From Candidatus Aminicenantes bacterium (GTDB lineage: Bacteria; Acidobacteriota; Aminicenantia; Aminicenantales; Aminicenantaceae): a stretch of DNA of 64,000 nucleotides. Below are positions 1,787 through 51,233 of this stretch, piece by piece; within the stretch, counting starts at the first letter, position 1; every line of letters starts with the position of its first letter. The notes below the pieces were generated by a model. That model was not told the origin of the DNA, made no database searches, and saw nothing but the letters and a program-made list of their open reading frames with translations. Where the stretch lies: positions 1,359-65,358 of the forward strand of contig JAUVXM010000003.1 in the NCBI GenBank assembly GCA_030603565.1, read 5' to 3'. Position numbers and translations under genes: made by a program.

Positions 1787-1945
1787 CGTTTTATACAGGC
1801 CAATTCTATGAAACTCTCTATTTCCTGCTGACTTCTTGTTGACAGTATATGTTTGCTCTGTGTATCATTGTAAATAAAGCAGCTCAATGGGCTGATGTTA
1901 ACCACATTTGAGGGTTTTTCAGATGAAATTCTTTGAGACGAACTT

Positions 1946-3140
1946 ATGGAAAAAGAAGCCAAAGCAAGGATAAGAATCAATGGCCTCCTTCAGCGTGCAG
2001 GGTGGCGGTTTTTTGATAATGAAAACGGCCCGGCAAATATTGCCCTGGAAATAAATGCCAAAATAAAGAAGAAAGTTCTTGACCAGTTTGGTGATGATTT
2101 TGAAAAAACCGTTGACGGATTTGTTGATTATCTCTTGCTTGACAGTAAAGGCTTCCCCTGTGCGGTACTTGAAGCAAAATCCGAAAAATTAGACCCATTG
2201 GTTGGCAAAGAACAAGCCCGCAAGTACGCTAAATCGTTAAATGTTCGCTTTATAATTCTTTCCAATGGAAACCTCCATTATTTTTGGGACTTAGAGCATG
2301 GTAATCCATCCATTATAACCGACTTTCCTTTTTTCTCCCACCGATTTCATACAGATCAAGGGCCGCGGCACACGGAGATATACCTTTCAATATAAAACCA
2401 AAGAGGGCAGCCGCATAGAGGAGTACAGGGACGAAAAGGGAACCTTCAAACTCTTCGATTTCTTTGCCACCTGCGAATATTTTGAGGAGAAATTCAATTA
2501 CGACGAAGTGCTGGAACTGCCACCAACTCAAGCGGGCACAGGTGATGGCAGCGGCATCAGCATTGATGAATTCGAGAGCATCAAACCGGACCCCTTATCG
2601 TCTTATATAGAGTCTCGAGTAGGCTATCATGGAATGAAGATCGACAGGAAATTTTACGATCAATTCGAGGAAACCGTCAAAAAAGATGATACGGTTCGCG
2701 AGCACTATGAGCGCGGTAATATCAAAGCAGCCGAGGAATACATCAGGGACAACCTCTTTGATAAACCTGAAGAATTCTTCAATTTGGAGAAACTGCGAAA
2801 GTCGGTCCAGCTCGATCGCCGGCTCTGGTTGTGGGAGATTATTGAAAAGGCATTTGGAGGCATTGACCGGTTTAAGTCCAAAGATGAACTGCTTGACGAG
2901 GAATTAGATAAATTTGTATCCATTCACAGGCCTGATGCTTCTCATATTTCCCGGATCAGGGATTTTTTCAAAGCTTATATTACGGACAGTGAAATCCGTG
3001 ACATTATAGAGAATAAACAATACAATCGCCTTGCCACCAATCCCAAGGTAACTATTGCCGATCTTAAGGACCTTGAAGAGTGGCGGAATATAATACCTGA
3101 ATATGTAAAGGACTATGTTTCTCTAAACACATTTTTGTAA
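1946..3140 (+). pseudogene. hsdR: Type I restriction enzyme R subunit (hsdR) remnant: HSDR_N nuclease domain joined by an internal deletion and frameshift to helicase motif VI plus C-terminal domain; motor core missing
   Basis: ORF 1946..2395 is an HSDR_N / PD-(D/E)xK domain (VDYLLLDSKGFPCAVLEAKSEK). The frame switches near 2320 to ...DFIQIKGRGTRR (SF2 motif VI, QxxGRxxR) with no DEAD-box or motifs I-V before it. The 2508..3140 ORF resembles an R-subunit C-terminal region. About 600 aa of ATPase core are absent. Confidence 0.7.
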
Positions 3141-3180
3141 AATATAGAAAATATCTGTATGTGATAAATGAGGATAACTG

Positions 3181-3755
3181 ATGGATAAAAAAGGTGTTAT
3201 GATTCCTGTTGAGAGAATTAAGCAGTTGATTGTGTTCATCCGCGGTCAGAAAGTTATGTTGGATCGGGATCTTGCAGAACTTTATGGCATAGAAACAAAG
3301 GTTTTGAAGCAAGCAGTACGGAGAAACATAAAACGTTTCCCTGACGATTTTATGTTTGAGTTAACGAAAGAAGAATTTGAAAATTGGAGGTCACAATTTG
3401 TGACCTCCAATAGGGACAAGATGGGTTTAAGATATAAACCTATGGCTTTCACCGAGCAAGGTGTAGCCATTCTTTCAAGCGTTTTGAGAAGTGAGAGGGC
3501 AATAGAAGTCAACATTGCCATAATGCTGCCTTCGTGCAACTCCGCGAAATGCTGGCTTCTAACGTGGAGCTTGCCAGTAAGCTGAAACAAATGGAAAAGA
3601 AATATGATGAACAGTTTAAGATCGTCTTTGAAGCTATTCGCCAACTTATGACGCCGCCAGAGAAGCCACGCAAGAAGATTGGGTTTGTGGTAAAGGAAAA
3701 GCAAGCTGCCTATGGCCGTCGAGGCATAAAACGCAAAAAGGCTGACCATGCTTGA
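3181..3755 (+). pseudogene. ORF6N-domain DNA-binding protein disrupted by a 1-nt frameshift near 3520
   Basis: N-terminal part [53 protein letters not shown] is the ORF6N signature. The reading ...AIM breaks, and the +1 frame continues (R)[35 protein letters not shown] (ORF 3534..3755). One missing base near gccataatgc-tgcc restores a single ORF. Confidence 0.65.
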
Positions 3756-6285
3756 TAACGGAACAAAAAAGCGGATAGATTCCGCGCGTGACATCCTTGT
3801 GGGTAAGGTTCCCGACCCAAAATCACAGGTAGAACAGATAACCATCGCCATGATCTACAAGTTCATGGACGACATGGACAATCAAACCGAAGAACTCGGA
3901 GGCAAGGCCACCTTTTTTGCGGGCGAATTCAAACAATACGCCTGGAGCCGCCTGCTGGACCGCAAATTCAGCGGTCACCAACGTCTTCTCCTTTATGCTG
4001 AGGGCATAGAGAAGATGAATATAAACGAAAACATCCCCCAGCTTTTCAGGGATATTTTTAAAGGAACGTTTCTTCCTTACAGGGACCCGGAAACACTAAA
4101 TCTCTTTCTGAAGGAGATAAACGGCTTTGCCTATGACCACAGCGAACGCCTGGGGGATGCTTTTGAGTATTTGCTTTCCGTTCTGAGCAGTCAGGGCGAT
4201 GCGGGGCAGTTTCGCACCCCACGTTATATCATTGATTTCATAGTTGAAATTGTAAATCCAGCCAAAGAGGACACTGTTCTTGATCCTGCATGCGGCACTG
4301 CCGGATTCCTGATCTCATCATACAAACACATCCTTCGCCAAAACACCAACCTGTCTACGTGCGGGCACGCACAGGCAGGAGACCACCCCGGCGACCTCCT
4401 GACCACCGATGATAAAGGCAGGCTTATGACCAATTTCTGCGGCTATGATATCTCCCCTGACATGGTGCGTCTGTCCCTGGTCAACATGTATCTGCACAGT
4501 TTTGCCAATCCATCAATTTATGAATACGATACACTTACCAGTGAAGACCGCTGGGACGAGCGTTATGATGTGATCATGGCCAATCCGCCATTTATGTCGC
4601 CCAAAGGGGGCATCCGGCCCCATTCCCGTTTCAGCATAAAGGCCAAACGGAGCGAAGTTCTTTTTGTGGACTACATCGCCGAACACCTCAATGTTCACGG
4701 CAGGGCCGGCGTCATTGTTCCTGAAGGGATCATCTTCCAGTCCCAGAATGCCTATAAGAATCTGCGCAGAATGTTGATTGATGAAGGCTACTTGTATGCG
4801 GTTATCTCCCTGCCTGCCGGGGTCTTTCAGCCATATTCGGGCGTAAAAACCAGCATCTTGATCATGGATAAAACCCTGGCAAAGAAGACCACTGAAATTC
4901 TTTTCGTAAAAATAGCAAACGACGGCTTTGACCTCGGAGCACAGCGTCGCCCCATTGAAAAGAACGACCTGCCCCAGGCCCTTGAGGTTGTCAAGGGCTG
5001 GAAGCAGGCAATCGGCGAAGGTAAAGGCTTTGAGTTTAACGAGGACGACAAGACAATCGCGCATACTGTCAGAAAAGAGAAAATTGCCGAGTCTGGCGAT
5101 TACAACCTCTCCGGGGACAGGTATAAAGAGGTTATGAGTTACGCCAATGTCAAGTGGCCGATGGTGGAGTTGGGGGATAAAAGCCTCTTTCAAATTGAAT
5201 CAGGCGGCACTCCAAGTTCCAACAAATCAGAATATTGGGATGGCGATATTAGATGGATAACATTGGTTGATTTACCCAAAGAAAATTTTATAACTTATAT
5301 TTCTGATACCAAAAGAAAGATTACAGAATTGGGATTAAGCAATTCATCTGCAAAGCTTCTGCCCAATAAAACTGTTTTGGTGTCGTCTCGTGCTACTATA
5401 GGCAGAATTGCTATTTCCCAAACAGAACTTGCGACAAATCAGGGATTCAAGAATGTAATCATTAAAGATTTCAGCAAGGTTAATGAAAAATATTTAGCGT
5501 GCATGCTTATGCGATTAGTTCCACAGATGGAGCAAATGGGAACTGGTGGCACATACAAAGAGATATCAAGAGCAAGCTTTTCAACTCTACGTATCCCCCT
5601 CCCACCCCTGGAAGTTCAGGAGAAGATTGTCGCGGAACTGGACGGTTATCAGGAAATCATTGATGGCGCAAAACAGATTGTCGAAAACTACAAACCCACA
5701 ATCAAAATCGACCCCGACTGGCCGTTGGTGGGGTTGGGGGAGGTGTGTGATATTAAGTCAGGCGGAACACCAAAAAAAGATGTTGATGACTATTGGGAAA
5801 ATGGTGAAATTCCTTGGCTTGGCTCTGGAGTCTGCAAAGATAATATTGTTTCTGAAAGTTCAGATTTTATAACTGAAACTGGTTTTAATAACTCCTCAGC
5901 TAAGAAATTGACCCCAAAAACTACATTAATCGCATTAGTTGGTGCTACGATAGGAAAAACAGCATTTCTTACTTTTGAAGCAACTACAAACCAAAATATT
6001 GCAGGCCTATATCCATTGAATACCAATGAATTACTTCCCGAGTTTCTATTTTATATTTCGCAAAGCCTATATTCAGAATTTATTAGTTTGGGGTCTGGAA
6101 AATTTAGAATGGCAAATCTAAGTTTCATAAGGGGATTGAAAATTCCCCTCCCACCCCTAAAAACTCAGGAAAAAATCGTTGCTGAAATCGAATCTGAGCG
6201 TGAGCTTGTGGAGGCGAATAAGAGGTTGATCGAGATTTTTGAGAAAAAGATAAAGGACAAAATCGGTGAAATCTGGGGGCAATAA
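3748..6285 (+). CDS. Fused type I RM methyltransferase-specificity protein (HsdM gamma-class N6-adenine methyltransferase domain plus HsdS with two target-recognition domains) in one 845-aa polypeptide
   Basis: [11 protein letters not shown] (motif X), [12 protein letters not shown] (motif I), IMANPPF (motif IV NPPF). From about aa 470 there are two target-recognition domains, each ending in the HsdS conserved repeat [17 protein letters not shown] / [17 protein letters not shown]. Start ATG overlaps the upstream ORF6N stop (ATGCTTGA). Confidence 0.85.
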
Positions 6286-6297
6286 TAAGGAGCATTC

Positions 6298-6660
6298 ATG
6301 AGTGAAAATGGAGTTATTCCAGGTGATCAGATTAAAAGCATTATCTTCCTGATACGCGGTCAAAAGGTCATGTTAAGCCCTCACCTGGCGGAGCTGTATA
6401 ATATTGAACCGCGCGTTCTGGTTCAGGCAGTAAAGCGAAATATCGAGAGATTCCCAGAGGATTTCATGTTTCAGTTGACAGACGATGAGTTTTTAAACTT
6501 GAAATCACAAATTGTGATTTCAAGTTGGGGTGGCTCTCGCAGGGCAAAACCCTATGCCTTCACTGAACAGGGTGTTGCGATGCTTCCATTGGGTTTTATA
6601 GTAAAGGAAAAGAAGGCTGCCTATGGCAAAAAAGAGGGCAGAGGAAAAGAAAAACCATGA
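6298..6660 (+). CDS. ORF6N-domain protein, shortened paralogue (central coiled-coil segment deleted)
   Basis: [57 protein letters not shown] then directly [16 protein letters not shown]. Same N- and C-terminal blocks as 3181..3755 but about 50 aa shorter. Overlaps the radC start. Confidence 0.55.
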
Positions 6661-7319
6661 AAACCATTAAAGACATGCCCGAACACAGCCGGCCCCGTGA
6701 GAAGCTGCGGGAAAAAGGCGCGTCTGCTCTGACCGACAAGGAACTGGTAGCCGCCATCCTTGGCCGTGGCATTGAAGGCGTGGATATTGTTACAATGTCC
6801 AGGAACGTCGCACGGCTGATACGAAAACATAAAGAGAACCTTTCTGTTGAGCATCTTACGTCTGTGCCGGGGATGGGGCTTGCCAAGGCCGCTCAGATAC
6901 TCTCGGCCTTTGAATTGGCAAGGAGATACCTGCTCAAAGAGACCGTAAAAATCACCAGCGCCAAGGATATCTTGCCCTTGGTTGCCGACATTGCCGATAA
7001 AAAACAAGAATATTTTGTGTGCATATCCTTAAACGGAGCCAACGAGCTCATTGAAAAGCGTATTGTCACCATCGGCCTTGTGAACAGCAGCCAGATTCAT
7101 CCGCGTGAAGTCTTTGCCGATGTCATCGCAGACCGTGCCGCTTCCGTCATCTTTGCCCATAACCATCCATCCGGCGACCCAAAACCAAGCGAAAGCGACG
7201 CAAAAACCCACAGGCAGCTTACAGAAGCCGGAAATATCCTCGGCCTTCGGATTCTCGATCACATAATAGTAACTAAAAAAGGATACTTCAGCTTCCAGGA
7301 AGCCGGATTGATTAGTTAA
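6657..7319 (+). CDS. radC: RadC-like JAB-domain protein
   Basis: N-terminal helix-hairpin-helix region ([10 protein letters not shown]..), JAB metal motif [27 protein letters not shown]. Confidence 0.85.
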
Positions 7320-7476: not shown

Positions 7477-8115
7477 ATGGCATATCCAATTCCAACTCCA
7501 ATTTATCACCTTACTCACATCGATAACTTGACCTCTATTATTCAGTCAGGAGGCTGCTTATCTTTTAACCAGATGCAAAATCAGGGGATTGGTCACATTG
7601 ATATTGCATACGAAACCATTCAAGCCCGCCGTGTACAAACATCAGTTCCATACGGTCCTGGAGGATGTTTACACGACTACGTGCCCTTTTTTTTTGCTCC
7701 ACGTCCCCCAATGCTCTATGCGATCCACGGAGGGAATGTGGAAGGATATGAACAAGGGCAGATCCCTCTCATTTATCTGGTTACAACAGCTCAAACTGTC
7801 AGCAATAGCAGCAGTGAATGGGTTTTTACAGATGGACATGCAACTATGGCATTTTCCGGATTTTTTGACGATCTAAATGACCTTGATGAGATCGACTGGG
7901 AGGTTATGGAGTCGCGATACTGGAATGATACGCCAACTCTGCCCGACAGAAAGCGCAGACGACAAGCAGAGTTTTTAATTAAAGATTGTTGTCCCTGGGA
8001 ATTGTTTTCAGAAATCGGGGTCATAAACTCACGAATGGGATCAAGGGCGGAAAATATTCTCGAAAAAAACAGACATCAACCAATTGTTCAGATACACGGG
8101 AACTGGTATTATTAG
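7477..8115 (+). CDS. darT: DarT ssDNA thymidine ADP-ribosyltransferase toxin (DUF4433)
   Basis: IYHLTHIDNLTSIIQSGGCLS at the N-terminus and RKRRRQAEFLIKDCCPWELFSEIGV at the C-terminus (catalytic Glu in the AEFL motif). Size 212 aa. Immediately followed by a macrodomain gene. Confidence 0.8.
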   Translation: MAYPIPTPIYHLTHIDNLTSIIQSGGCLSFNQMQNQGIGHIDIAYETIQARRVQTSVPYGPGGCLHDYVPFFFAPRPPMLYAIHGGNVEGYEQGQIPLIYLVTTAQTVSNSSSEWVFTDGHATMAFSGFFDDLNDLDEIDWEVMESRYWNDTPTLPDRKRRRQAEFLIKDCCPWELFSEIGVINSRMGSRAENILEKNRHQPIVQIHGNWYY

Positions 8116-8127
8116 AAGGAGGGAATC

Positions 8128-9195
8128 ATGATTAAGCTTACGCAAGGCAACGTTATCGAAGCCGATGTGGAAGCCCTTGTCAATACCGTAAATTGTGTGG
8201 GTATTATGGGCAAGGGTATCGCTCTCCAGTTTAAGCAGGCATTCAGGGATAACTTCCAGGCATACACAAATGCTTGTAGAAAGGAAGAAGTCAAGCCGGG
8301 GCTCATGTTCATCTTCCCTACTCATAGAATGATCAATCCTAAATACATCATTAATTTCCCAACAAAGCGGCACTGGAAGGAAAAATCTAAGCTCGAATAC
8401 ATTGAGCAAGGACTAAACAGTTTGGTCAAGGAAGTCCGCCGGTTAAGAATCAAGGCTATTGCCATACCTCCTTTGGGTTGTGGCTACGGTGGGTTGAAAT
8501 GGCCAGTGGTCCGTAATCTAATCGAAACCTCATTCGATCAATTGCCCGATGTCCAGGTGCTCCTTTTCGAACCTGGAAGAACACCCGAGGCTGAATCAAT
8601 GCCTATAGATTTCACAAAACCATCATTAACGCGTGCCAGGGCTCTTCTCATTAAGCTCCTTGAGCAGTATGCCATACCAGGTTACCGGTTGAGCCTGCTG
8701 GAAATCCAGAAGCTTGCATATTTCCTTCAGGTTGCGGGTGAACCTCTTCGTTTGGAGTATGTCAAACAGAAGTATGGACCTTATGCTGAAAATCTTAATT
8801 TCGTGCTGCAACTATTGGAAGGGCATTACATTCGGGGATATGGGGACCGCAGTGTCAGGGCATCTATCCGCCTTCTCAATAGTGCCGGTGAGGAGGCCAG
8901 TAGGTTTTTGGCAGATAATCAAGAAGCCTTCCAACGCCTCGAGAGAGTGGGGCAACTAATTGAGGGTTTTGAAACGCCCTATGGTATGGAGCTCTTATCA
9001 TCCGTGCATTGGGTTGCAGTGGCCGATGACAAACCAGCTCAAACCGTGGATCAGGCCGTGAATCAGATTTTTGCCTGGAATGCCCACAAAAAAAAGACTT
9101 TCAAAGCCAGTCATGTCCACAAGGCATGGCAGCGTCTTGTTGAGCAAAGCTGGTTGCCAATTTTTTCATCGACCCTTTCTAATCCTTCGCATTGA
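8128..9195 (+). CDS. darG: DarG antitoxin: N-terminal TARG1-like macrodomain (ADP-ribosyl-DNA hydrolase) plus C-terminal DarT-binding domain
   Basis: EADVEALVNTVNCVGIMGKGIALQFKQAF macrodomain signature. 355 aa. RBS AGGAGGG 6 nt upstream; 12 nt downstream of darT. Confidence 0.75.
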   Translation: MIKLTQGNVIEADVEALVNTVNCVGIMGKGIALQFKQAFRDNFQAYTNACRKEEVKPGLMFIFPTHRMINPKYIINFPTKRHWKEKSKLEYIEQGLNSLVKEVRRLRIKAIAIPPLGCGYGGLKWPVVRNLIETSFDQLPDVQVLLFEPGRTPEAESMPIDFTKPSLTRARALLIKLLEQYAIPGYRLSLLEIQKLAYFLQVAGEPLRLEYVKQKYGPYAENLNFVLQLLEGHYIRGYGDRSVRASIRLLNSAGEEASRFLADNQEAFQRLERVGQLIEGFETPYGMELLSSVHWVAVADDKPAQTVDQAVNQIFAWNAHKKKTFKASHVHKAWQRLVEQSWLPIFSSTLSNPSH

Positions 9196-10500: not shown

Positions 10501-10535
10501 GTGAATAATTCAAGTCCGCCTGAACTATTCATAAA
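10501..10535. repeat. Solo TIR palindrome of the MITE family (right end and left end abutting)
   Basis: gtgaataattcaag tccg cctgaactattcataaaaa; lies between vapC and larA. Confidence 0.5.
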
Positions 10536-10924
10536 AATTGAAGTTTTAGCCTAATATTTTTATTGATCAGTTTAAAATGTGAATCTGCTGTAACTATAGT
10601 CAAATCATAATAAATAGCATGTGCAGCAATAATTAAATCTGTTAAAGGAATTGTATAACCTTTTTTTCTTAATCTGAATCCAATCTGGGATGTCTGTGCA
10701 AATATATTTTTATCAGTTTTTAGATGTTTAAAACCTTCAAAATTATTTTTGAGAAAGGAGAATTCTTTTTTATTAACTGCCCCAATAAGAAGCTCACTCA
10801 AAATAATACCATTATAATAGATTTTGTCTTCTTCAATTAAAGGCAGAAGAAAATCATTAACTGCTTTGTTCTTGCCTTTAAAAAAATCAATCCAAATTGT
10901 ACTGTCAATAATAAATTTACTCAT
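10529..10924 (-). CDS. vapC: PIN-domain toxin VapC
   Basis: 131 aa; IIDSTIWIDFF (N-terminal acidic residue), TIVTADSHF. Overlaps the upstream antitoxin by 8 nt. Confidence 0.75.
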   Translation of the reverse strand: MSKFIIDSTIWIDFFKGKNKAVNDFLLPLIEEDKIYYNGIILSELLIGAVNKKEFSFLKNNFEGFKHLKTDKNIFAQTSQIGFRLRKKGYTIPLTDLIIAAHAIYYDLTIVTADSHFKLINKNIRLKLQFL

Positions 10925-11132
10925 TCAATTCTTCTTCCCTTAATTTCAAAATATCTACTTTCAAATCCAATTTCCCACATGACTCTTTGATTTTTTCACG
11001 TTTTAATTTCCTGACAAAATCAGAAAGGGCTAGTTCAATAATCTTTGTCTTGTTTGCGATACCTGACAGCTTTAGTGATTCTGAGATTAAATCATCATTT
11101 ATATTAAGTGTAGTTCTCATCTGCACCTCCAA
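10917..11132 (-). CDS. vapB: VapB-type antitoxin
   Basis: 71 aa; MRTTLNINDDLISESLKL...IIELAL. Translationally coupled to vapC. Confidence 0.6.
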   Translation of the reverse strand: MEVQMRTTLNINDDLISESLKLSGIANKTKIIELALSDFVRKLKREKIKESCGKLDLKVDILKLREEELNE

Positions 11133-40090: not shown

Positions 40091-41086
40091 CTATTTAAAC
40101 TCAAATCCCAGAACTTTCCGTACAGTTTTATTTCCAGTCGTGTTTTTTAGGGTGGCAAATATTTTATTCCGCCCCTTGCAGAGGAGTTCAACATTTTTTT
40201 CAATAACAAACGGGAGCTCGATCTTGTATTTTATCCCTTTACTTTCCTGCAGCTCCTCCTCTGTAGTTTTCACTTCATACGATTCTTCGTACTCCCAGAT
40301 CTTCTTCTTATCTGTATCCCTTACTTCAAGATAGAGCTCAAGCACTGTTGCCATCTCTCCGTCTTTTTCCTTAAGCCACAGGTGGGAAAAAGGCACTTCT
40401 ATAAATATAATACCCTCCACTCTTTCCCCCCCTACCAGACCGGCTTTGACCTTCCAGTTAAAATTGAAAAATCCTTCCTGGCCTTGAATGGTCTGTTGGG
40501 CCTGACTTTGGGCCTTGCTTAATTGGTGCATATACATAAGATTCGTAGTACGAAGCTGAGTCAGGTTATAGGTCACCAGTCTATAATGTCCGGAACAAGA
40601 GGAATCAACAAATACAACAGGAAAGTTTCCATAATACCAGGTCTCACTGCAATTATAACTTGGATTATTTGTTATCCGGTCCATAGGAGGCCCAAACAGA
40701 ACGTAGATGCGCCCCCGATCAGTAAGCCAACCCGGCCTTCCTTCGCCTATGAAGAGTTCATTCGCCCTTTCAATCCGGTTGTAATATTCCATTTTAAACT
40801 CATTTTCTTCTGTCTGAGGATCCGGGTCGCGCCGGGCCCAGAATTCCTGTTTAAACTCTTCTTTTTCAGCAGCCGGAAGTTCAAGAAACATCTTCCGTTC
40901 TTTAGAGGTAATAATATACCTGACCTTGTCTAACCATTCCGAATTTTCAGGATCCAGCTTTTGCTCCAGGCTGTAATAATGGCAGGAAATCGATAAGATC
41001 AGAAGGAGGCAAAATAGCATCATCAGTCCCGGGATAACCAGCCCCCTTTCCCGAATATATCTATTTGAAAGCAAAAGATGCATCAT
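40091..41086 (-). CDS. GWxTD-domain protein
   Basis: RPGWLTDRGRIYVLFGPP motif; membrane anchor; 4-nt overlap with the upstream gene. Confidence 0.7.
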   Translation of the reverse strand: MMHLLLSNRYIRERGLVIPGLMMLFCLLLILSISCHYYSLEQKLDPENSEWLDKVRYIITSKERKMFLELPAAEKEEFKQEFWARRDPDPQTEENEFKMEYYNRIERANELFIGEGRPGWLTDRGRIYVLFGPPMDRITNNPSYNCSETWYYGNFPVVFVDSSCSGHYRLVTYNLTQLRTTNLMYMHQLSKAQSQAQQTIQGQEGFFNFNWKVKAGLVGGERVEGIIFIEVPFSHLWLKEKDGEMATVLELYLEVRDTDKKKIWEYEESYEVKTTEEELQESKGIKYKIELPFVIEKNVELLCKGRNKIFATLKNTTGNKTVRKVLGFEFK

Positions 41087-43143
41087 TTTTTCTCCTTTAA
41101 AGCTTCCACATTTTTTTTTATTTTAGGCTGGTCTACATTGATCTCAAGCGATTTCATCCAGGCAGTCAATGCCTCCGACATATCCCCCAACTGAAAATAG
41201 CATTCACCGATCGCATTAAGGCAGTTGGTGTTGAGGCCGTGATGGTTCATGGCTTTTTCAAATATCTCAATGGCTTGAGCTAACTCGCTCCGGTACTGAT
41301 AAGCTCTACCCAGGATAAAATATATTTCGAATTTTGGAGGTTCATCCAGGTTTACAAATGGAAGCAAGACAGCTGGAACTTCATCATAGTTTTTTTTCTC
41401 CATATAAACACGAACCAGATTCAGGGCAAATTCAGCATTTTCCGGATTTTTATGGAAAGCGGCCTCCAGTTTGGCCTCAGCAGCTTCAATCTGTCCGGTA
41501 TTAAACAACTGAGAACCAAGGACAAAAGAATAAACCGGGTTTTCAGTTTCGGACAACAGTTTGCTGTAAATCCAGGGACGGGCTATACTTTCCATATAAG
41601 TGACATCAAATTCATCGCTCTCAAAAAGCTTTTCCTGGCTATCCACAATGAGAGAAACCCGGACCCGGTAGTGGGCTGGGGAAAAATTTTTAAGCGAAAA
41701 CTTCTCTACAAAATCCGGAATATTCCTATATTCACTTATCTTTCTGTAAAGACTAAAAAAATCTTCTCCGTCACGGTAAAAATTATATTTTATCACTGCC
41801 TTCTCTTTTTCATCCAGGCTTAGGCCATGAATCTGATACGCCAGCACTATATCATCCTTTCTAAGAAACACACGGTTTGCCTGAAAATACATCTGATAGC
41901 TTCCTGCCTGAAAAGGCCGCAGACGGTTGTTGGCTGGAATATTCCAGTTCATATGGTACCCTAAGAGCAGAGAAGTCATCTGGATCCGATCTTCTTCTCC
42001 GGGAATAAGGAGGGTTCGGTCAAGAGAAGTAAATTCTTTAGATATCTCATTTTTAACCAGTACGGATAAGCGAAATTTGCCTGGAATCAAAGGAAACATA
42101 TCCCGGATACTTAAAGGCCGGCTGCTTACCTTTTTCATTTGTTCCTCTTTAAATTCCAAATGGATAGTCTTATCGAACTGATACACTGTTTTGCCCTCTA
42201 TCGTGGAAACGGTCCCATTTAATTTTAAGGTTGTGTAAAACTTGTCCTGGTACTGGTTTACAGATAGCCTTTCCGGTTCTATGGCGTAATGAACAAAATA
42301 TATTCCCGAAGGATCCTTCAATACCTTTACCAGAGAATCGCAGTCCATATAATTCGCTGTATATTCCACCTCGACCAGGTCCTTATATTCCAGGAATTTC
42401 CTGGCATATCTATCCTCTATTGCTCTAACAGGCGTGGATTCAACCCGGTTTACTAATATATCTGAAGACATGGTAGGCCGGCCGATCCCATCCGAACGAT
42501 CTCCCGGGATCAAAGTCATAGCATAACCAGAAAGCTCGGGTTCAAATTCACGCAACTGGCTATAAGCAGCCATGTAATCCATAGGATCTCCAAGGTAAGA
42601 TGTCAATAGGGCCTGCGGCCCGTCTCCGAGCGGACTATACAATTCATATTCACCCAGACCGCCTTCCTGATAAAATACCAGATTAAACCCGGGGGGAAGC
42701 CCTTTATCAGTCAGCCCCTGGTAAAACCAGACCACTGTCGGATAAACCTGAGTTTTACCCTCAAACCTCTGTATGTCATTTGGAGCGCCAAGAATGATGT
42801 AGATCCTGCCGCGGTCGGTTTTCCAGCCTTTTTTTGGGAGAGCGCGTCCAAAAAATTGATTTGCATAATTTATCCGGCGGTAATGCTCGGTTTTGAACTC
42901 GTTCTCCGGAGTGCTGAGGGTAGGGTCGCGATGTTTCCAGAAGGCTTTAATAAACATATCCCTTTCGCGATCTGTTTTAAGCTGTAAAAAAATCTCATTT
43001 TCCACCGGTGCTATAATATACACGACTTCCTCTTCAAGCCACTTTTTATGATGTTTGGGAAGGTCACCTACTCCAGCTGAAGCATTATATACAAAGGAAA
43101 ATAATACAGCGGCTAATAAATATAATATGAGTCTATTCCTCAC
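41083..43143 (-). CDS. GWxTD-domain protein with C-terminal TPR repeats
   Basis: KKGWKTDRGRIYIILGAP; signal peptide; TPR-like C-terminus (..AYQYRSELAQAIEIFEKA..). Confidence 0.7.
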   Translation of the reverse strand: MRNRLILYLLAAVLFSFVYNASAGVGDLPKHHKKWLEEEVVYIIAPVENEIFLQLKTDRERDMFIKAFWKHRDPTLSTPENEFKTEHYRRINYANQFFGRALPKKGWKTDRGRIYIILGAPNDIQRFEGKTQVYPTVVWFYQGLTDKGLPPGFNLVFYQEGGLGEYELYSPLGDGPQALLTSYLGDPMDYMAAYSQLREFEPELSGYAMTLIPGDRSDGIGRPTMSSDILVNRVESTPVRAIEDRYARKFLEYKDLVEVEYTANYMDCDSLVKVLKDPSGIYFVHYAIEPERLSVNQYQDKFYTTLKLNGTVSTIEGKTVYQFDKTIHLEFKEEQMKKVSSRPLSIRDMFPLIPGKFRLSVLVKNEISKEFTSLDRTLLIPGEEDRIQMTSLLLGYHMNWNIPANNRLRPFQAGSYQMYFQANRVFLRKDDIVLAYQIHGLSLDEKEKAVIKYNFYRDGEDFFSLYRKISEYRNIPDFVEKFSLKNFSPAHYRVRVSLIVDSQEKLFESDEFDVTYMESIARPWIYSKLLSETENPVYSFVLGSQLFNTGQIEAAEAKLEAAFHKNPENAEFALNLVRVYMEKKNYDEVPAVLLPFVNLDEPPKFEIYFILGRAYQYRSELAQAIEIFEKAMNHHGLNTNCLNAIGECYFQLGDMSEALTAWMKSLEINVDQPKIKKNVEALKEKK

Positions 43144-45681: not shown

Positions 45682-48600
45682 CTAGATTTTCTTCGTCTTA
45701 AACGACACTTTGTCAAAAAGGCTGTAAAGTATCGGGATGACAAAGAGGGTAAAAATGGTAGTAGCTATAAGGCCTCCGATCACAGTGATAGCCATAGGCG
45801 CACGCATCTCTGCGCCTGCAGAAGTGCTCACAGCCATGGGAACCATTCCCATAATAGTCGTCAGGGCTGTAATCAGTACCGGACGCAGACGAACAGTGCA
45901 GGCCTGCAGTATCGCTTCTTTTATCTCGATTCCCTTCCTCTTTAATTGATTGATATAGTCCACCATAACAATTCCATTATTAACAGCAATTCCTCCCAGC
46001 ATAACAAATCCTATCATCGTAACAAGACTTATCGGCCATCCCGATATAAGTAATGCTAATGCCACCCCGATAAGCGACAAGGGAATTGTAAACATTATAA
46101 CAAACGGATGCTTAAACGATTCGAACTGAGAAGCCATGATCATATAGACAAAAAGAACTGCAAGCGCAAAAACTCCGATCATTATAATAAAAGCTTTCTG
46201 CATCTCTTCATACTGTCCGCCATACTCGATAAAATAACCTATGGGAAGGGTTTTCTCCATTGGGGCTGTTCTCTTGATAATATCACTCATAACACTACCC
46301 AGGTCACGCCCTGCGATATTGGCAGTCACACTGACAAGACGGGCCTGATTTTCTCTGGTTATCTGAATCGGCCCTTCGCCCTTTGAGATTTCAGCAACCT
46401 GATCCAAACGTATCATAGTGTTGGCAGGAGTTACTATAGGGATATTCCGGATATTATCTATATTATCCCGGTATTTTTTCTGAAATCGCACTCGCACATC
46501 AATTTCTTCGTTTTCTTCCCGGTAACGGGTTGCAATTTTACCCAATGATGCGACTTGGACTGCATTTGCGACCTGGCCTACTGTCAAGCCAAATCGGGAA
46601 GACTTCTCCCTGTCAATACTGATCTGATATTCAGGTTTTCCTTCGGCAAACGTGTGAGTAACATCTCTAAGGCCTTCAACATCCCGGATCCTATCCCTTA
46701 TATTATCTGCAATTTCCTTTAACTGCTCAATATCCTTGCCAAAAACTTTTATCTCGATCGGGGCTTGAGTTCCACCCATCATTACCTGGCTCATATCCAG
46801 GGCCTCAAACTTTACATCTTTGAGTTTTGGTAATTTATGACGGATCTTCTCCAGAATCTCAAGATCTGATAGCGACCTTTCATCCTGGGGAACAAGACCT
46901 ACCCACAAAATTCCTTCATGCGGCCCTGAAGGGTTAAAGCCGGAAGCAGTATCCTGGGCATTCTCTTCGGCTTGGGAGCCGGCTTGGGCAGAGACAATCT
47001 TTACTGTCGGCTCATTGAACATAACTTCTTCAGCCATGGAAAGTACCCGGTTAGTTTCTTCAAGAGAGGTGCCGACCGGCATTTTCAATTTAATCAGAAG
47101 CATGTCCCTGTCTGTAGTCGGCATAAATTCTGTTCCGATAAAAGGAAACAATCCAAAGGAAAGCAGGAAGAGGACAACAGCTGCGGTCAAGACCAGGCCT
47201 CTCCGCTTCAGGGCTTTGAGTAAGGCCCGGCGGTAAAAATTCCGGGCTTTTTCAAAACGTATTTTTCTTGGTTTATCACTATTCCCCCCATGCCTATTAT
47301 CGACTTTAAATAACAGAGAGGCGACCAGAGGAATAACTGTTAAGGCTACTAATAGAGAAGCGGTCAAAGAAAATGCGATCGCCAGGGCCAGGCTCCGGGT
47401 CATCTTTCCGGTTATGCCGGAAGCGAACATCATGGGGAAAAAGACAGCAATTGTGGTCAAAGTGGATGCTGTGATAGCCATTCCTACTTCAGATGCGCCT
47501 TTTTTGGCAGCTTCTATGCGATTTTTTCCCTCTTCAAGGTGGCGGAATATATTTTCAATTACCACAACCGCATTATCGACCAGCATCCCTATACCTAAAG
47601 CCAGTCCTCCCAAGGTAAGCAGATTAAGAGTATAGCCGGCAACATAAAAAGCAATAAAGGTGGTTATGACTGAAAGGGGGATAGCCAAACCGATGGTTAT
47701 AGTCGGACGCCAATTGCGCAGAAAGATGAAAATAAACAGGATAGCCAGAATACCTCCGACCAGGGCATTATTTCCGGTCTTGCGGATGACTTGCTGAATC
47801 ATATCAGACTGATCCATGGCAATAAAAAATTTCACATCAGAGGGTAGGGTCTCTTTAATCTTTGCCAGTTCCTTTTTAACCGCTTTAGTAGTTATAACAG
47901 TATTGGCCCCGGAACGCTTGCTGATGATCATGTAAACACCATTCTCTCCCTGGATGCGGGCAACATAGCGTGACTCCTTCATAGTATCTTTGACGTCAGC
48001 TACATCTTTTAGATATATGGGCTGGCCTGTCTGGGTGGCTCCTACTACTGTATTTCGGATATCATCCAAATTTTTAAACTCACCCAGTGTACGCACTAAC
48101 AGCTCTGAATGTCTTTCAACTATGTATCCTGCCGGTAGATTTATGTTCTCAGCTCTAAGTGCCATAATGATCCGATCCGGAGAAAGCATCCGGGACTCAA
48201 GCGCGGCCTTATCAATATCGACCAGGATCTCCCTGACATCGGTTGAAAATACCTGGGCTGCTGCTACTCCGTCTATTCTTTCAAGCCTCATAGCGACTTC
48301 ATCTTTTATCAATTCCATCAACTCATATGTTGGCATATCAGACGTGATCCCCCAAAAAATAATAGGCATCTGGGAGATATTGAATTTCACAACCAGAGGT
48401 TCTGCAGCATCTTCAGGAAGATAGCCGCTGTAAAGGCCGATCTGATCGCGCACATCCTGGCCGGCAAAATCCAAGTTAGTTCCCCACTCAAATTCCACCA
48501 TAATCATAGAGAGCCCTTCAGATGTGATAGAATCGACTTTTTTAACCCCGGAAACAGAGTTCACTACCTGTTCTAGGGGACGGGTAATGGTATTTTCTAT

Positions 48601-48774
48601 ATCTTTAGAAGAAGCGCCGCTGTAAGTAGTGATAACAGAGACGGTAGGAAACTCAAGATCTGGGAAAAAGTCCAAGCCCAACCGCATAAAAGAAAGAATA
48701 CCCAGAACCACCAGGATCATAGCAAACATGATAGTGGTGACTTTTCTATTAACGGAAAATTCCGGTATTTTCAT
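45682..48774 (-). CDS. RND-family efflux transporter (AcrB/HAE1-like)
   Basis: 1030 aa, 12-TM RND architecture, conserved N-terminal block FFPDLEFPTVSVITTYSGAS. Confidence 0.9.
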   Translation of the reverse strand: MKIPEFSVNRKVTTIMFAMILVVLGILSFMRLGLDFFPDLEFPTVSVITTYSGASSKDIENTITRPLEQVVNSVSGVKKVDSITSEGLSMIMVEFEWGTNLDFAGQDVRDQIGLYSGYLPEDAAEPLVVKFNISQMPIIFWGITSDMPTYELMELIKDEVAMRLERIDGVAAAQVFSTDVREILVDIDKAALESRMLSPDRIIMALRAENINLPAGYIVERHSELLVRTLGEFKNLDDIRNTVVGATQTGQPIYLKDVADVKDTMKESRYVARIQGENGVYMIISKRSGANTVITTKAVKKELAKIKETLPSDVKFFIAMDQSDMIQQVIRKTGNNALVGGILAILFIFIFLRNWRPTITIGLAIPLSVITTFIAFYVAGYTLNLLTLGGLALGIGMLVDNAVVVIENIFRHLEEGKNRIEAAKKGASEVGMAITASTLTTIAVFFPMMFASGITGKMTRSLALAIAFSLTASLLVALTVIPLVASLLFKVDNRHGGNSDKPRKIRFEKARNFYRRALLKALKRRGLVLTAAVVLFLLSFGLFPFIGTEFMPTTDRDMLLIKLKMPVGTSLEETNRVLSMAEEVMFNEPTVKIVSAQAGSQAEENAQDTASGFNPSGPHEGILWVGLVPQDERSLSDLEILEKIRHKLPKLKDVKFEALDMSQVMMGGTQAPIEIKVFGKDIEQLKEIADNIRDRIRDVEGLRDVTHTFAEGKPEYQISIDREKSSRFGLTVGQVANAVQVASLGKIATRYREENEEIDVRVRFQKKYRDNIDNIRNIPIVTPANTMIRLDQVAEISKGEGPIQITRENQARLVSVTANIAGRDLGSVMSDIIKRTAPMEKTLPIGYFIEYGGQYEEMQKAFIIMIGVFALAVLFVYMIMASQFESFKHPFVIMFTIPLSLIGVALALLISGWPISLVTMIGFVMLGGIAVNNGIVMVDYINQLKRKGIEIKEAILQACTVRLRPVLITALTTIMGMVPMAVSTSAGAEMRAPMAITVIGGLIATTIFTLFVIPILYSLFDKVSFKTKKI

Positions 48775-49880
48775 TATTTAACCTCTTTTACCTCTAATTC
48801 TGCTCCGTTTTCAAGACCGTAATTCCCTTCAACTACCACAAGGTCTCCTTCCTCAAGTCCCTGCAAAATTTCCACAAGATCGGTATTCTGCAATCCAATC
48901 TTGATCTCTCTCTTCACAGCTTTGTTCCCTTTTGCTAAAAAGACATGACTGTTCTTAAGCACTGCTTTTTGGGGAATTACAAGGGAATCTTCATGAGTGC
49001 TGACTTCCAGCACAACTTCTCCAAAAGTATTCGGACGTAAAAGCAAATCAGGATTCTTAACTCGTACTTCCACTTTAAATTTCTTCGTCATAGGATCTGC
49101 TGCCAAATTCACAACAGTAACCTCTCCAGGGAAGGTCTTATCTGAAAATGCACTGACTTTAAGCCAGGCGGCCTGACCTTTTTTTATGCGGACAATATCC
49201 TGATAAGATACATCTACCTCGATCTTAACCTGGGAAAAATCCATAAGAGTAACTACTCCACTGCTAGGCGAATACCCCCCCATCATAGGATTAATAACAT
49301 CTCCAACATCAGCATTTTTTGAAGCGATCACCCCGCTGAAAGGAGCTTTCATAAGAGAAACATTCAGACTATGTTTTGCTAAATTAACTGCTGCTCCGGC
49401 TTGCTGGAGCTGGGCGTCAGCTAAGTCAAAAGCAAGCTTTACTTTCTCATACTGCTGATCGGAAACGGCATTTTCCTGTTTCAACCGCTCCATCCGCTCC
49501 ATATTACGGGAAGCATCATTATAACTTGCCTCAGCTACGGCCAGGGCTGCTTGAGCCTGTTCCAATTGAAGGCGAATAGGTCGTGTGTCCAGTTCTGCCA
49601 GGAGCTTACCTTTTCTTACCCTGTCTCCGCTCTCAACGTATATCTTAGTGATCTTACCTCCTACTTCTGGAGTGATGACAATTTTATTCTGGGCTTCGAT
49701 CAAGCCTGTATAAAAAAGTTTTTCTGATATCTTCTGTCTTTTTACCTTAAAAACTTTAACTTGGGCGGCCCCAAAGCTTTCTTCTGCAATTGTTTCTTCA
49801 TCTTTTTGAGCTTTACAGGAGAAAAAAGAAACAGCAACCAATATTATTATAATAATTACCCCTAGCCGTCTTTTATTCAT
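48774..49880 (-). CDS. RND efflux periplasmic adaptor (membrane-fusion protein, HlyD family)
   Basis: 368 aa; lipoprotein-like N-terminus; coiled-coil plus beta-barrel blocks; 1-nt overlap with the pump gene. Confidence 0.85.
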   Translation of the reverse strand: MNKRRLGVIIIIILVAVSFFSCKAQKDEETIAEESFGAAQVKVFKVKRQKISEKLFYTGLIEAQNKIVITPEVGGKITKIYVESGDRVRKGKLLAELDTRPIRLQLEQAQAALAVAEASYNDASRNMERMERLKQENAVSDQQYEKVKLAFDLADAQLQQAGAAVNLAKHSLNVSLMKAPFSGVIASKNADVGDVINPMMGGYSPSSGVVTLMDFSQVKIEVDVSYQDIVRIKKGQAAWLKVSAFSDKTFPGEVTVVNLAADPMTKKFKVEVRVKNPDLLLRPNTFGEVVLEVSTHEDSLVIPQKAVLKNSHVFLAKGNKAVKREIKIGLQNTDLVEILQGLEEGDLVVVEGNYGLENGAELEVKEVK

Positions 49881-49910
49881 TTATATCCTCCATATCATCC
49901 TATTAATAAT

Positions 49911-51233
49911 TCATCCCACACCCATAGCCTTATCCAATTCTGCAAGAGCAACCTCATAATCATACAGTGCCTGCGAATAATTGGTTTTCGCTTGGGTTAA
50001 AGCTGACTGAGCCTGATTATAATCAAGCATTGTGATCAGGCCTTCTTTAAAATTTAAATCCGCAATCCTCAGACTTTCCTCAGCCTGCTCCACATTTTTT
50101 TCCTGAGAGAGAAGAGATTCTTTGGCTTCATTGATTTTTAATATTGCCTGTCTGACTTCAAATTTCAGCATATCAACAAATCCCTTCCGGTTAAATTCAA
50201 GCTCCTTTATAGCGGCTTTAGCCTGTCCTACCCTGGCCCCTGTGGCAAATCCATTGAATATGGGAATAGACAGGGTTAGATTCATCTGATAAAAATTCGA
50301 CCAAGTGTCCTTATTGAAATTTAATTTATCCGCCCAGTAATTGTACTGGCCTGAAATAGCTACGGAAGGAAGTCCGGCAGCACGTGCCATTTTCAAACCT
50401 TCGCCGGCAATTCTTTTCTGGAAGCCAAGCTGTTTGAGCTCTGGCCGGTTCTTCATAGCTTTAACCAGACAGACATCAAGCTCGGGTTCTACTGCTTCGT
50501 AAGTCAATTTTCCCTGGACTTCTATCTCTTTTTTCTGATCCATTCCCAATATCGTCTTTAGATTAAGCTTCATGATCTTTAAATTATTCCTGGCTTTGAT
50601 CAACTGAGGCTTTAAATTGGCCAGTTGAACTTCAGACCTTAAAAGGTCAAACTGAGAGGCCATGCCGACTTCATGCTGGATCTTGATATTGTTGTGGAGT
50701 TTTTCAGCTAAAGCAACAGCCTCTTCCGAAACCTTAACAAATTCTTCCGCCAGCAAAATCCCATAAAATATTTTTTTGGTATTGAAAACAGTAGTATGCC
50801 GGGATTGCCGGACAGCTTCCTTAGCAGCATCAACATTGTAATTTGCCTGTTTAAATCCAGAAATCAACCGCCCTCCTGTAAAAAGAGGTACAGACAAAGA
50901 CATGGTAAATTGATAATCCCGGGTAAAATCGATCTCGACTCTCTGGGGAGGTTGTCCGGGGATCATGGAAGGAAACTCCAATTCCATAGCTTTTTCATCC
51001 AATGTGTATAATCCCTGCGCATTAAGTGCGGGCAAGAAACCGGAAACAGCTTCTCTTACTCCTGATTTAGCAGCATCCACTTTTTTCTGAGAGGCCAGGT
51101 GATAAGGATTCTGTTGCAGGGCTATATTAAGACTGTCTTCCAAAGTCAGTATCCTTTTTTCCTGGGAAAAGGAAAAACTTACGGCAAATAGAAGCACAAA
51201 AAGGATTAAACAGTATTTTTTTGTATTCTTCAT
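49911..51233 (-). CDS. TolC-family outer-membrane efflux protein
   Basis: 440 aa; signal peptide; duplicated OEP repeats (LTLEDSLNIALQQNP..). Confidence 0.85.
   Translation of the reverse strand: MKNTKKYCLILFVLLFAVSFSFSQEKRILTLEDSLNIALQQNPYHLASQKKVDAAKSGVREAVSGFLPALNAQGLYTLDEKAMELEFPSMIPGQPPQRVEIDFTRDYQFTMSLSVPLFTGGRLISGFKQANYNVDAAKEAVRQSRHTTVFNTKKIFYGILLAEEFVKVSEEAVALAEKLHNNIKIQHEVGMASQFDLLRSEVQLANLKPQLIKARNNLKIMKLNLKTILGMDQKKEIEVQGKLTYEAVEPELDVCLVKAMKNRPELKQLGFQKRIAGEGLKMARAAGLPSVAISGQYNYWADKLNFNKDTWSNFYQMNLTLSIPIFNGFATGARVGQAKAAIKELEFNRKGFVDMLKFEVRQAILKINEAKESLLSQEKNVEQAEESLRIADLNFKEGLITMLDYNQAQSALTQAKTNYSQALYDYEVALAELDKAMGVG

Follow-up and report, generated by a model that had tools for sequence, protein, structure and literature searches.

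The present analysis concerns hsdMS, a gene found in a 64,000-nucleotide stretch of DNA from Candidatus Aminicenantes bacterium (assembly GCA_030603565.1, contig JAUVXM010000003.1, positions 1,359 to 65,358 of the forward strand). The whole of this stretch is called the window below, and its first letter is position 1. The gene encodes in one polypeptide the modification subunit (HsdM, M) and the specificity subunit (HsdS, S) of a Type I-like restriction-modification system. It is quite likely that hsdMS is a member of a clade of naturally fused M–S proteins that normally make up one half of an operon with a separate restriction gene hsdR (R), that hsdR is broken in the window, and that the product of hsdMS is now a solitary S-adenosylmethionine (SAM)-dependent N6-adenine methyltransferase with a bipartite target. 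The analysis establishes the architecture of the gene, its family and the synteny of the related loci, the deletion within hsdR and the purifying selection acting on hsdMS.

Architecture of the fused gene and its family

The preliminary description of this DNA, made from the sequence alone, reported an uninterrupted 845-residue M–S open reading frame (ORF) with the gamma-class N6-methyladenine motifs GQFRTPR and NPPF, and both the frame (2538 nt, plus strand) and the motifs were located where they had been placed (the coordinates of all features are collected in Table 1). GQFRTPR occupies residues 153-159 (nt 4204-4224), the SAM-binding motif I residues 179-188 (nt 4282-4311) and the catalytic motif IV NPPF residues 279-282 (nt 4582-4593). 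The Pfam model N6_Mtase matches residues 133-462 with an E-value of 2.5e-54, and the preceding residues 1-132 are strongly conserved throughout the family. In the C-terminal half, where a lack of Methylase_S similarity had been named as a possible objection, the Methylase_S model matches in two stretches (E 5.2e-54; best stretch residues 468-642). The corresponding PADLOC models, MTase_I and Specificity_I, score 3.7e-95 and approximately 1e-60. These Pfam and PADLOC scores lie far beyond anything expected by chance. The two target recognition domains (TRDs) had been said to end, each of them, in an IPLPPL..QEKIVAE repeat, and this was borne out: the copies were found at residues 616-630 (nt 5593-5637) and 799-813 (nt 6142-6186), and the 50-nt direct DNA repeat at 5593-5642 and 6142-6191 corresponds to them.

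A search for repeats around hsdMS returned the repeats of the conserved regions CR1 and CR2 and of the TRD starts inside the hsdS part, as well as a short repeat in the ORF6N genes. Beyond these, no direct or inverted DNA repeats marking a shufflon or a recent duplication were found around the gene. The Rfam and tRNA scans gave nothing relevant close to the locus. The protein matched no nuclease family; weak matches came only from the methyltransferase-domain models Eco57I and MmeI_Mtase. Assignment to Type IIG/IIB enzymes or to PglX of BREX systems was rejected, the matches being weak and far below the cut-offs. The same applies to the MADS proteins MAD2 and MAD5 (NF047738, 99 bits vs a cut-off of 720; NF047740, 26 vs 400).

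The search for other M–S fusions that had been suggested in the preliminary description gave a clear result, with the same architecture found in at least 120 protein clusters and at least 80 species-level genomes. A search of 5.8 billion protein clusters listed at least 120 full-length homologues, nearly all of them 800-870 residues long, with 100% query coverage, 52-80% identity, the same Pfam architecture and a continuous junction. A scan of one genome per GTDB species returned at least 595 confirmed stretches. The best 80 of these, to which all statistics on 80 loci refer, almost all span query residues 1 to about 845, and they belong to Spirochaetota, Planctomycetota, Nitrospirota, Chloroflexota, Pseudomonadota, Bacteroidota, Verrucomicrobiota, Patescibacteria and other phyla, including cultured strains of Bradyrhizobium and Thiobacillus. 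The junction, consisting of GDYNLSG(D/E)RY, about 10 residues and (W/F)P.V.LG, is unbroken and constant in spacing in 50 independent loci, those in which the motif could be located automatically. A stop codon or frameshift at 5100-5200, suspected at the outset, is thereby excluded, and so is an artefactual read-through between separate hsdM and hsdS genes, since the junction is continuous both in the 50 loci and in the full-length homologues. No conserved slippery heptamer that could free the M part by programmed frameshifting was found between 30 nt before and 90 nt after the junction; isolated matches occurred in five of the 50 loci.

The M domain was also used alone as the query in a profile-free search of 1.84 billion representatives, which gave 939 matches at E <= 1e-30. 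Among the best 150 representatives, 133 proteins were N-terminally complete, and their C-terminal tails comprised about two TRDs (78 proteins), about one TRD (31), a longer extension (13), a partial TRD (2) or nothing but M or fragments (9). The tail census, the full-length homologues and the constant junction together make fusion to S the rule for the whole M clade. The fusion, which might have been taken for an oddity or a local event, is thus the standard form of a large clade spread over many phyla.

Approximately 10% of the M-clade representatives are 910-1000 residues long. Three such long-tailed proteins that were checked (P0239, P0229 and P0157) each show two Methylase_S stretches together with additional sequence that no Pfam domain covers; between the end of the M-domain match and the first listed Methylase_S stretch, P0239 and P0229 have about 130-180 residues.

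In 73 of the 80 loci, a tblastn search with the HsdR protein of a related locus (L001) found a full-length HsdR homologue immediately 5' of the fused gene; the remaining seven offer less than 500 nt of sequence on that side. The distance between the R stop and the MS start does not exceed 40 nt in about half of the loci; in the rest 370-2100 nt are inserted, and some of these inserts match a GxxExxY or an ORF6N gene. In the 80 loci the 6 kb to each side of the fused gene contain no second hsdM or hsdS, and neither does the 64-kb window. The regular presence of upstream HsdR and the absence of a second M gene mean that the family is a natural two-gene Type I-like system composed of R and a fused M~S. 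The closest relative (P0002, 80% identity, on three Joint Genome Institute metagenome contigs) shows the gene order hsdR, a 142-residue GxxExxY/PDDEXK_3 gene, hsdMS and radC; its hsdR product, 838 residues long, contains HSDR_N, DEAD/ResIII and SWI2_SNF2 domains. The best NCBIfam match of the partner R is to the EcoAI/FtnUII (Type IB) family, at 229 bits against a cut-off of 550, and the M part scores 66 bits on the hsdM equivalog TIGR00497, against a cut-off of 243.

The hsdR pseudogene and the present state of the locus

The preliminary description considered hsdR to be deleted. It was right in that no functional hsdR exists at the locus; remnants of the gene nevertheless occupy positions 1946..3140, the missing part having come from inside the gene. 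In a DNA comparison, window positions 1930-2328 match L001 1812-2210 and positions 2331-3142 match L001 3529-4346. The deleted 1318 bp, a length that is not a multiple of three, encode HsdR residues from about 129 to 566 with motifs I-V of the superfamily 2 (SF2) motor. The N-terminal fragment is matched by Pfam HSDR_N and HSDR_N_2 and by the NCBIfam model of EcoAI/FtnUII R proteins, and its reading frame meets a stop at 2395. Residues 567-838 were placed by tblastn at 2328-3137 in a frame that differs from that of residues 1-128; this frame is open to 3140, and about 270 residues are left. With a large out-of-frame internal deletion and two pieces in different frames, hsdR is an internally deleted pseudogene and not an absent gene. 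A functional HsdR, with a nuclease and an SF2 translocase, is therefore lacking in the window and present in the 73 related loci mentioned above.

The course of events may be pictured as follows. In intact loci the fused protein serves as the modification and recognition half, and the upstream gene encodes an EcoAI-like HsdR of about 838 residues, with a PD-(D/E)xK nuclease and an SF2 motor. In the window, restriction would have been lost because the out-of-frame deletion takes out the hsdR motor. The fused gene, left intact, would probably still be transcribed from the hsdR promoter, and its product would act as a solitary N6-adenine methyltransferase, its two different TRDs, spaced by the CR1/CR2 coiled coil, reading a bipartite asymmetric target. 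The locus would then represent a Type I-like restriction system shortly after the loss of restriction, which left a probable epigenetic (orphan) methylase in a defence and toxin-antitoxin island. In the 64-kb window the gene does answer to the notion of an orphan, being an intact methyltransferase gene without a functional cognate restriction gene in its locus. The orphan methyltransferase proposed in the preliminary description is accordingly the likeliest present state of this copy; as a state it is secondary and recent, and it is not the function of the fusion.

The ratio of nonsynonymous to synonymous substitution rates (dN/dS) in the M domain, calculated against three relatives, is 0.055-0.07, and hsdMS is thus under purifying selection. 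Some observations weigh against the reading of the gene as an active solitary methyltransferase. The activity of the protein is predicted from conservation only, and the hsdR remnants show dN/dS values of 0.06-0.08, as low as those of hsdMS. Compared with the split from L001 the deletion is therefore recent, and selection for a solitary role cannot be concluded from the conserved state of hsdMS alone. Both ORF6N genes flanking hsdMS are damaged, a possible sign that decay affects the entire locus. Within residues 201-213, between methyltransferase motifs I and II, the window copy has a unique 30-nt in-frame insertion, missing from L001 and from another related locus, L084; it could impair the M domain. 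Finally, the hsdR deletion and the ORF6N frameshift could be assembly errors in metagenome-derived sequence.

One rival supposition is that the entire locus is a decaying remnant in which hsdMS is non-functional through the loop insertion, lost expression or missing partners. The internal deletion of hsdR, the frameshift in the upstream ORF6N gene, the internal deletion in the downstream one and the unique insertion speak for such a decay, and the low dN/dS would mostly reflect the history that preceded it. Against it stands the state of hsdMS itself. The 2538-nt frame is open and, as the first row of the family alignment, the protein holds all of the approximately 170 invariant columns, motifs I and IV included. 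The insertion is in frame and falls in a loop that is disordered in the structural model and variable in length across the family. The locus has also kept a candidate promoter, and hsdMS its translational coupling to the gene before it. Decay of this extent is considered unlikely. The promoter-like site upstream of hsdR is a possible operon promoter candidate judging by its match to the consensus; promoter-like sites in the region are not more numerous than in shuffled controls. No terminator-like site was detected on the plus strand after it until 7543.

An origin of the fusion, of the hsdR deletion or of the two together in assembly or sequencing errors is highly improbable. The sequence probably comes from a metagenome-assembled or draft genome, its exact protein being on record on just one NCBI contig of 77.8 kb, and single-base indels such as that in the ORF6N gene are typical of sequencing errors. 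The junction, however, is conserved in sequence and length in the 50 loci and in the full-length homologues, and a clean 1318-bp deletion with good homology on both sides is atypical of sequencing error.

It is also conceivable, and again counts against a solitary role, that hsdMS still takes part in a working restriction system with an HsdR paralogue encoded elsewhere in the genome. Members of the family nearly always come with an HsdR, only 64 kb of the genome is in view, and in the Sau1 system of S. aureus Type I M/S modules are known whose R gene lies in trans. A tblastn search with the cognate HsdR, however, detected no hsdR homology in the window besides the two remnants; R and MS are tightly linked in the family, as seen from the short gaps in about half of the loci; and R-less copies recur among close relatives, namely in L084 and L085. 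A trans-encoded partner is therefore judged quite unlikely, and a solitary methyltransferase remains the preferred reading. One-TRD forms occur among the relatives as well: P0013 and P0014 are 652 residues long and 88-89% identical to HsdMS, and the locus of P0014 (88% identity) has the order RadC, ORF6N, M~S1/2, RadC without hsdR.

Target recognition, stoichiometry and relation to known systems

The segment comprising TRD1 and CR1 (window 5143-5697, compared with L001 6259-6814) has a synonymous divergence (dS) of 0.17, far below the value of 0.7 in the adjoining M domain. This comparison indicates a recent recombinational exchange of the TRD cassette. The same TRD type as window TRD1 is present twice in L001, whereas window TRD2 (5719-6141) has no DNA match there. 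With TRD1 so close to L001 and TRD2 unmatched there, the TRDs are evidently swapped between relatives in the way known from classical hsdS genes. Since the two TRDs of the window copy are of different types, the enzyme should recognise an asymmetric bipartite target; L001, carrying one type twice, is predicted to have a palindromic one.

The AlphaFold2 (AF2) model of the HsdMS protein (mean predicted local distance difference test score, pLDDT, 83.8; predicted template modelling score, pTM, 0.55) includes a helical N-terminal domain, a Rossmann-type catalytic domain, two TRDs and the helices CR1 (residues 621-647) and CR2 (residues 804-843). In a Foldseek search it matched the HsdM structures 2okc, 5ybb_A and 3lkd with target-normalised TM-scores of 0.68-0.74 and, apart from these, the HsdS structures 1yf2_A (E 6e-30, target-normalised TM-score 0.67) and 7vru_C. 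Neither the sequence search nor the fold search found a solved structure of a full two-TRD M~S fusion, the matches being separate chains and the one-TRD protein 7eew. In M2S1 enzymes the C-terminal tail helix of HsdM lies packed on the coiled coil of S. Because in the model no long helix separates the catalytic domain from TRD1, the alignments with HsdM chains end 44-54 residues before the C-termini of the latter (3lkd_A at residue 488 of 542, 7vru_A at 455 of 499), and the family linker is only about 10 residues long, the C-terminal tail helix of HsdM seems to have no counterpart in the fused protein.

In the absence of the M-tail helix the canonical M2S1 four-helix bundle could not form in the usual way. 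One M would be tethered to TRD1 and TRD2 would have no M of its own, which gives a ratio of 1:2. One-TRD and two-TRD forms occur side by side in the clade. Most likely, a second protomer in an (MS)2 dimer would supply the second M for methylation of both half-sites, as has been suggested for the engineered fusions. The alternative is a monomer that methylates one strand only, at the adenine on the TRD1 side. A more far-reaching and doubtful, though possible, proposition is that the family constitutes a distinct uncharacterised Type I-like branch that lacks the tail helix and always has two TRDs per M, for which R2M2S1 would be impossible and which would act either as an asymmetric R1M1S1 complex or as (MS)2 with a spare S module. 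If this were true, the R1M1S1 version would methylate one strand of the bipartite site and translocate one-sidedly, as Type ISP enzymes do, and either version would bear on the long-standing puzzle of AloI and CjeI stoichiometry.

With classical Type I systems, especially Type IB (EcoAI), the family shares the gamma-class N6-adenine methyltransferase, the order TRD1-CR1-TRD2-CR2, an HsdR that combines nuclease and SF2 motor, and the swapping of TRDs. Motifs I and IV and the two-TRD module with two helices are present in hsdMS; separate M and S subunits assembling as M2S1 through the HsdM tail helix are not. The family differs from them in having M and S in one chain and in M and R scores below the family cut-offs.

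Fusions of HsdM with HsdS are not new in kind. Roberts et al. (2012) proposed the name 'Type IMS' for an HsdM–HsdS fusion with one or two TRDs and a separate HsdR, and their EcoKI MSFusion is active in vivo in both modification and restriction, but in vitro depends on HsdM being added (PMC3510504). The MSfus protein of S. aureus CC398-1 (Bower et al. 2018) methylates the two strands of its bipartite site; a clipped fragment containing M is purified along with it, and the protein may form dimers (PMC6158711). HsdMS resembles Type IMS in the in-frame fusion of HsdM to a two-TRD HsdS and in the separate HsdR of its family. The engineered proteins, in contrast, keep the full tail helix of HsdM, whereas TRD1 of the natural family begins about 10 residues after GDYNLSG(D/E)RY; they needed or co-purified with an extra M fragment, whereas natural loci have no extra hsdM gene. 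Judged as a Type IMS system, with M and S in one polypeptide and a separate functional HsdR that is lacking in the window and found in the family at large, the window copy is a decayed member. The laboratory-built evolutionary intermediate thus exists in nature as a large multi-phylum clade with its own HsdR. In the open-access literature no experimental description of a natural full M–S fusion was found, only the engineered EcoKI and S. aureus fusions.

A natural fusion of smaller size is M~S1/2 of Vibrio vulnificus YJ016, called a 'minimal intact MTase' (methyltransferase; PDB 7eew; Seo et al. 2022, as cited in PMC12429846). Like HsdMS it is a naturally fused HsdM–HsdS chain, and no PDB entry is closer in sequence to the C-terminal portion of the hsdMS catalytic domain (E 1.2e-13); one-TRD forms also occur inside the hsdMS clade (31 of 133 in the census). 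The V. vulnificus protein differs in having one TRD and one CR helix and in forming a dimer, (M1S1/2)2, which restores one M per TRD, whereas HsdMS has two different TRDs per M. The V. vulnificus protein reportedly contains an M-tail helix.

The Type IIB/IIG enzymes AloI, CjeI, PpiI and TstI are also single chains in which two C-terminal TRDs go with one M, and for AloI and CjeI this ratio was called 'a mystery' by Loenen et al. 2014 (PMC3874165). These enzymes have their own N-terminal nuclease and no ATP-dependent motor subunit, whereas the N-terminus of HsdMS is HsdM_N-like and the nuclease and motor reside on HsdR. The Type ISP enzymes LlaGI and LlaBIII are likewise fused in a Type I-like manner and have a single M per enzyme (PMC3874165); they are single R~M~S chains with one TRD, whereas the hsdMS family has a separate R and two TRDs. 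Having two TRDs for every M and no M-tail helix, the family would offer a tractable natural model for methylation and cutting by AloI- and CjeI-like enzymes.

Neighbouring genes

Table 1. Features of the hsdMS locus, with positions in the window
Feature	Position	Strand	Remarks
Promoter-like site TTGACA-18-TATCAT, 11 of 12	1839..1868	+	consensus match; about 80 nt upstream of hsdR start
hsdR pseudogene, N-terminal fragment, HsdR residues 1-128, PD-(D/E)xK nuclease region	1946..2329	+	tblastn, 87% identity
hsdR deletion junction	2328..2331	+	1318 bp missing relative to L001; frame shifted
hsdR pseudogene, C-terminal fragment, HsdR residues 567-838	2331..3140	+	tblastn, 85% identity, other frame
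ORF6N-domain gene, interrupted by a 1-nt frameshift near 3525-3530	3181..3755	+	ORFs 3181..3585 and 3534..3755
hsdMS, fused methyltransferase-specificity gene	3748..6285	+	845 residues
M-part N-terminal helical domain, HsdM_N-like, residues 1-132	3748..4143	+	Pfam HsdM_N, E 0.0057 (weak); all-helical in AF2 model
Gamma-class N6-adenine methyltransferase catalytic domain, residues 133-462	4144..5133	+	Pfam N6_Mtase
M-domain loop with insertion, residues 201-213	4348..4386	+	AF2 pLDDT <50 at residues 204-211
Fusion junction: end of M part, 10-residue linker, WPMVELGD (TRD1 start)	5095..5178	+	without M-tail helix (model-based)
TRD1, residues 470-615	5155..5592	+	Pfam Methylase_S 468-642; 86-88% DNA identity to both L001 TRDs
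Central conserved region CR1, helix residues 621-647	5593..5688	+	repeat search, AF2 model
TRD2, residues 658-798	5719..6141	+	type differs from TRD1 and from L001 TRD2
Distal conserved region CR2, helix residues 804-843, and stop codon	6142..6285	+	repeat search, AF2 model
Second ORF6N-domain gene, 120 residues	6298..6660	+	lacks about 74 central residues relative to intact homologue
radC (JAB-domain) gene	6657..7319	+	syntenic with hsdMS in closest loci

Two damaged ORF6N genes, which belong to the PADLOC candidate type PDC-S05, bracket hsdMS. The upstream one (Pfam ORF6N 5e-36, PADLOC PDC-S05) was aligned to the intact 241-residue homologue of L084, and its end overlaps the start of hsdMS by 8 nt. 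In L084 and L085 the gene immediately preceding hsdMS is an intact ORF6N gene, and in L014 and L032 ORF6N homology was found in this place too. A radC gene follows hsdMS in the window, in L001 (7505-8167) and in L005, L039, L084 and L085; in L084 and L085 copies of radC lie on both sides of the M~S1/2 gene.

The contig of L014 (JAIWHJ010000521.1, labelled Promethearchaeota archaeon) is 2.1 kb long and was binned to an Asgard archaeon. Its positions 1-1660 encode an M domain 90% identical to that of hsdMS, with the ORF6N homology upstream. The gene content of the window is bacterial, as exemplified by an RND efflux system (45682-51233) and a GWxTD protein (41083-43143). The match, set against this content, suggests mis-binning or a very recent transfer.

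Downstream of the R-less M~S1/2 gene, L084 (10249-15831) and L085 (5068-10650) contain two genes encoding a 1299-residue nSTAND3-type NTPase and a 470-residue protein with SLFN/AlbA_2 and HATPase_c_4 domains, which constitutes another defence-island context.

The upstream edge of the window, positions 1-1945, contains no ORF longer than 123 residues on either strand and no Rfam match at the gathering threshold; the GC content has a minimum of 0.35 at 1501-2000. This region may be a degraded island edge. Just downstream of radC lies a toxin-antitoxin or defence module consisting of DarT, a single-stranded DNA thymidine ADP-ribosyltransferase (7477-8115, plus strand; Pfam 8.6e-68), and a DarG-like macro-domain gene (8128-9195, plus strand). 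Further on, the minus strand carries a VapC (PIN)/VapB toxin-antitoxin pair at 10529-10924 and 10917-11132, where the GC content drops to 0.27 (10501-11000).

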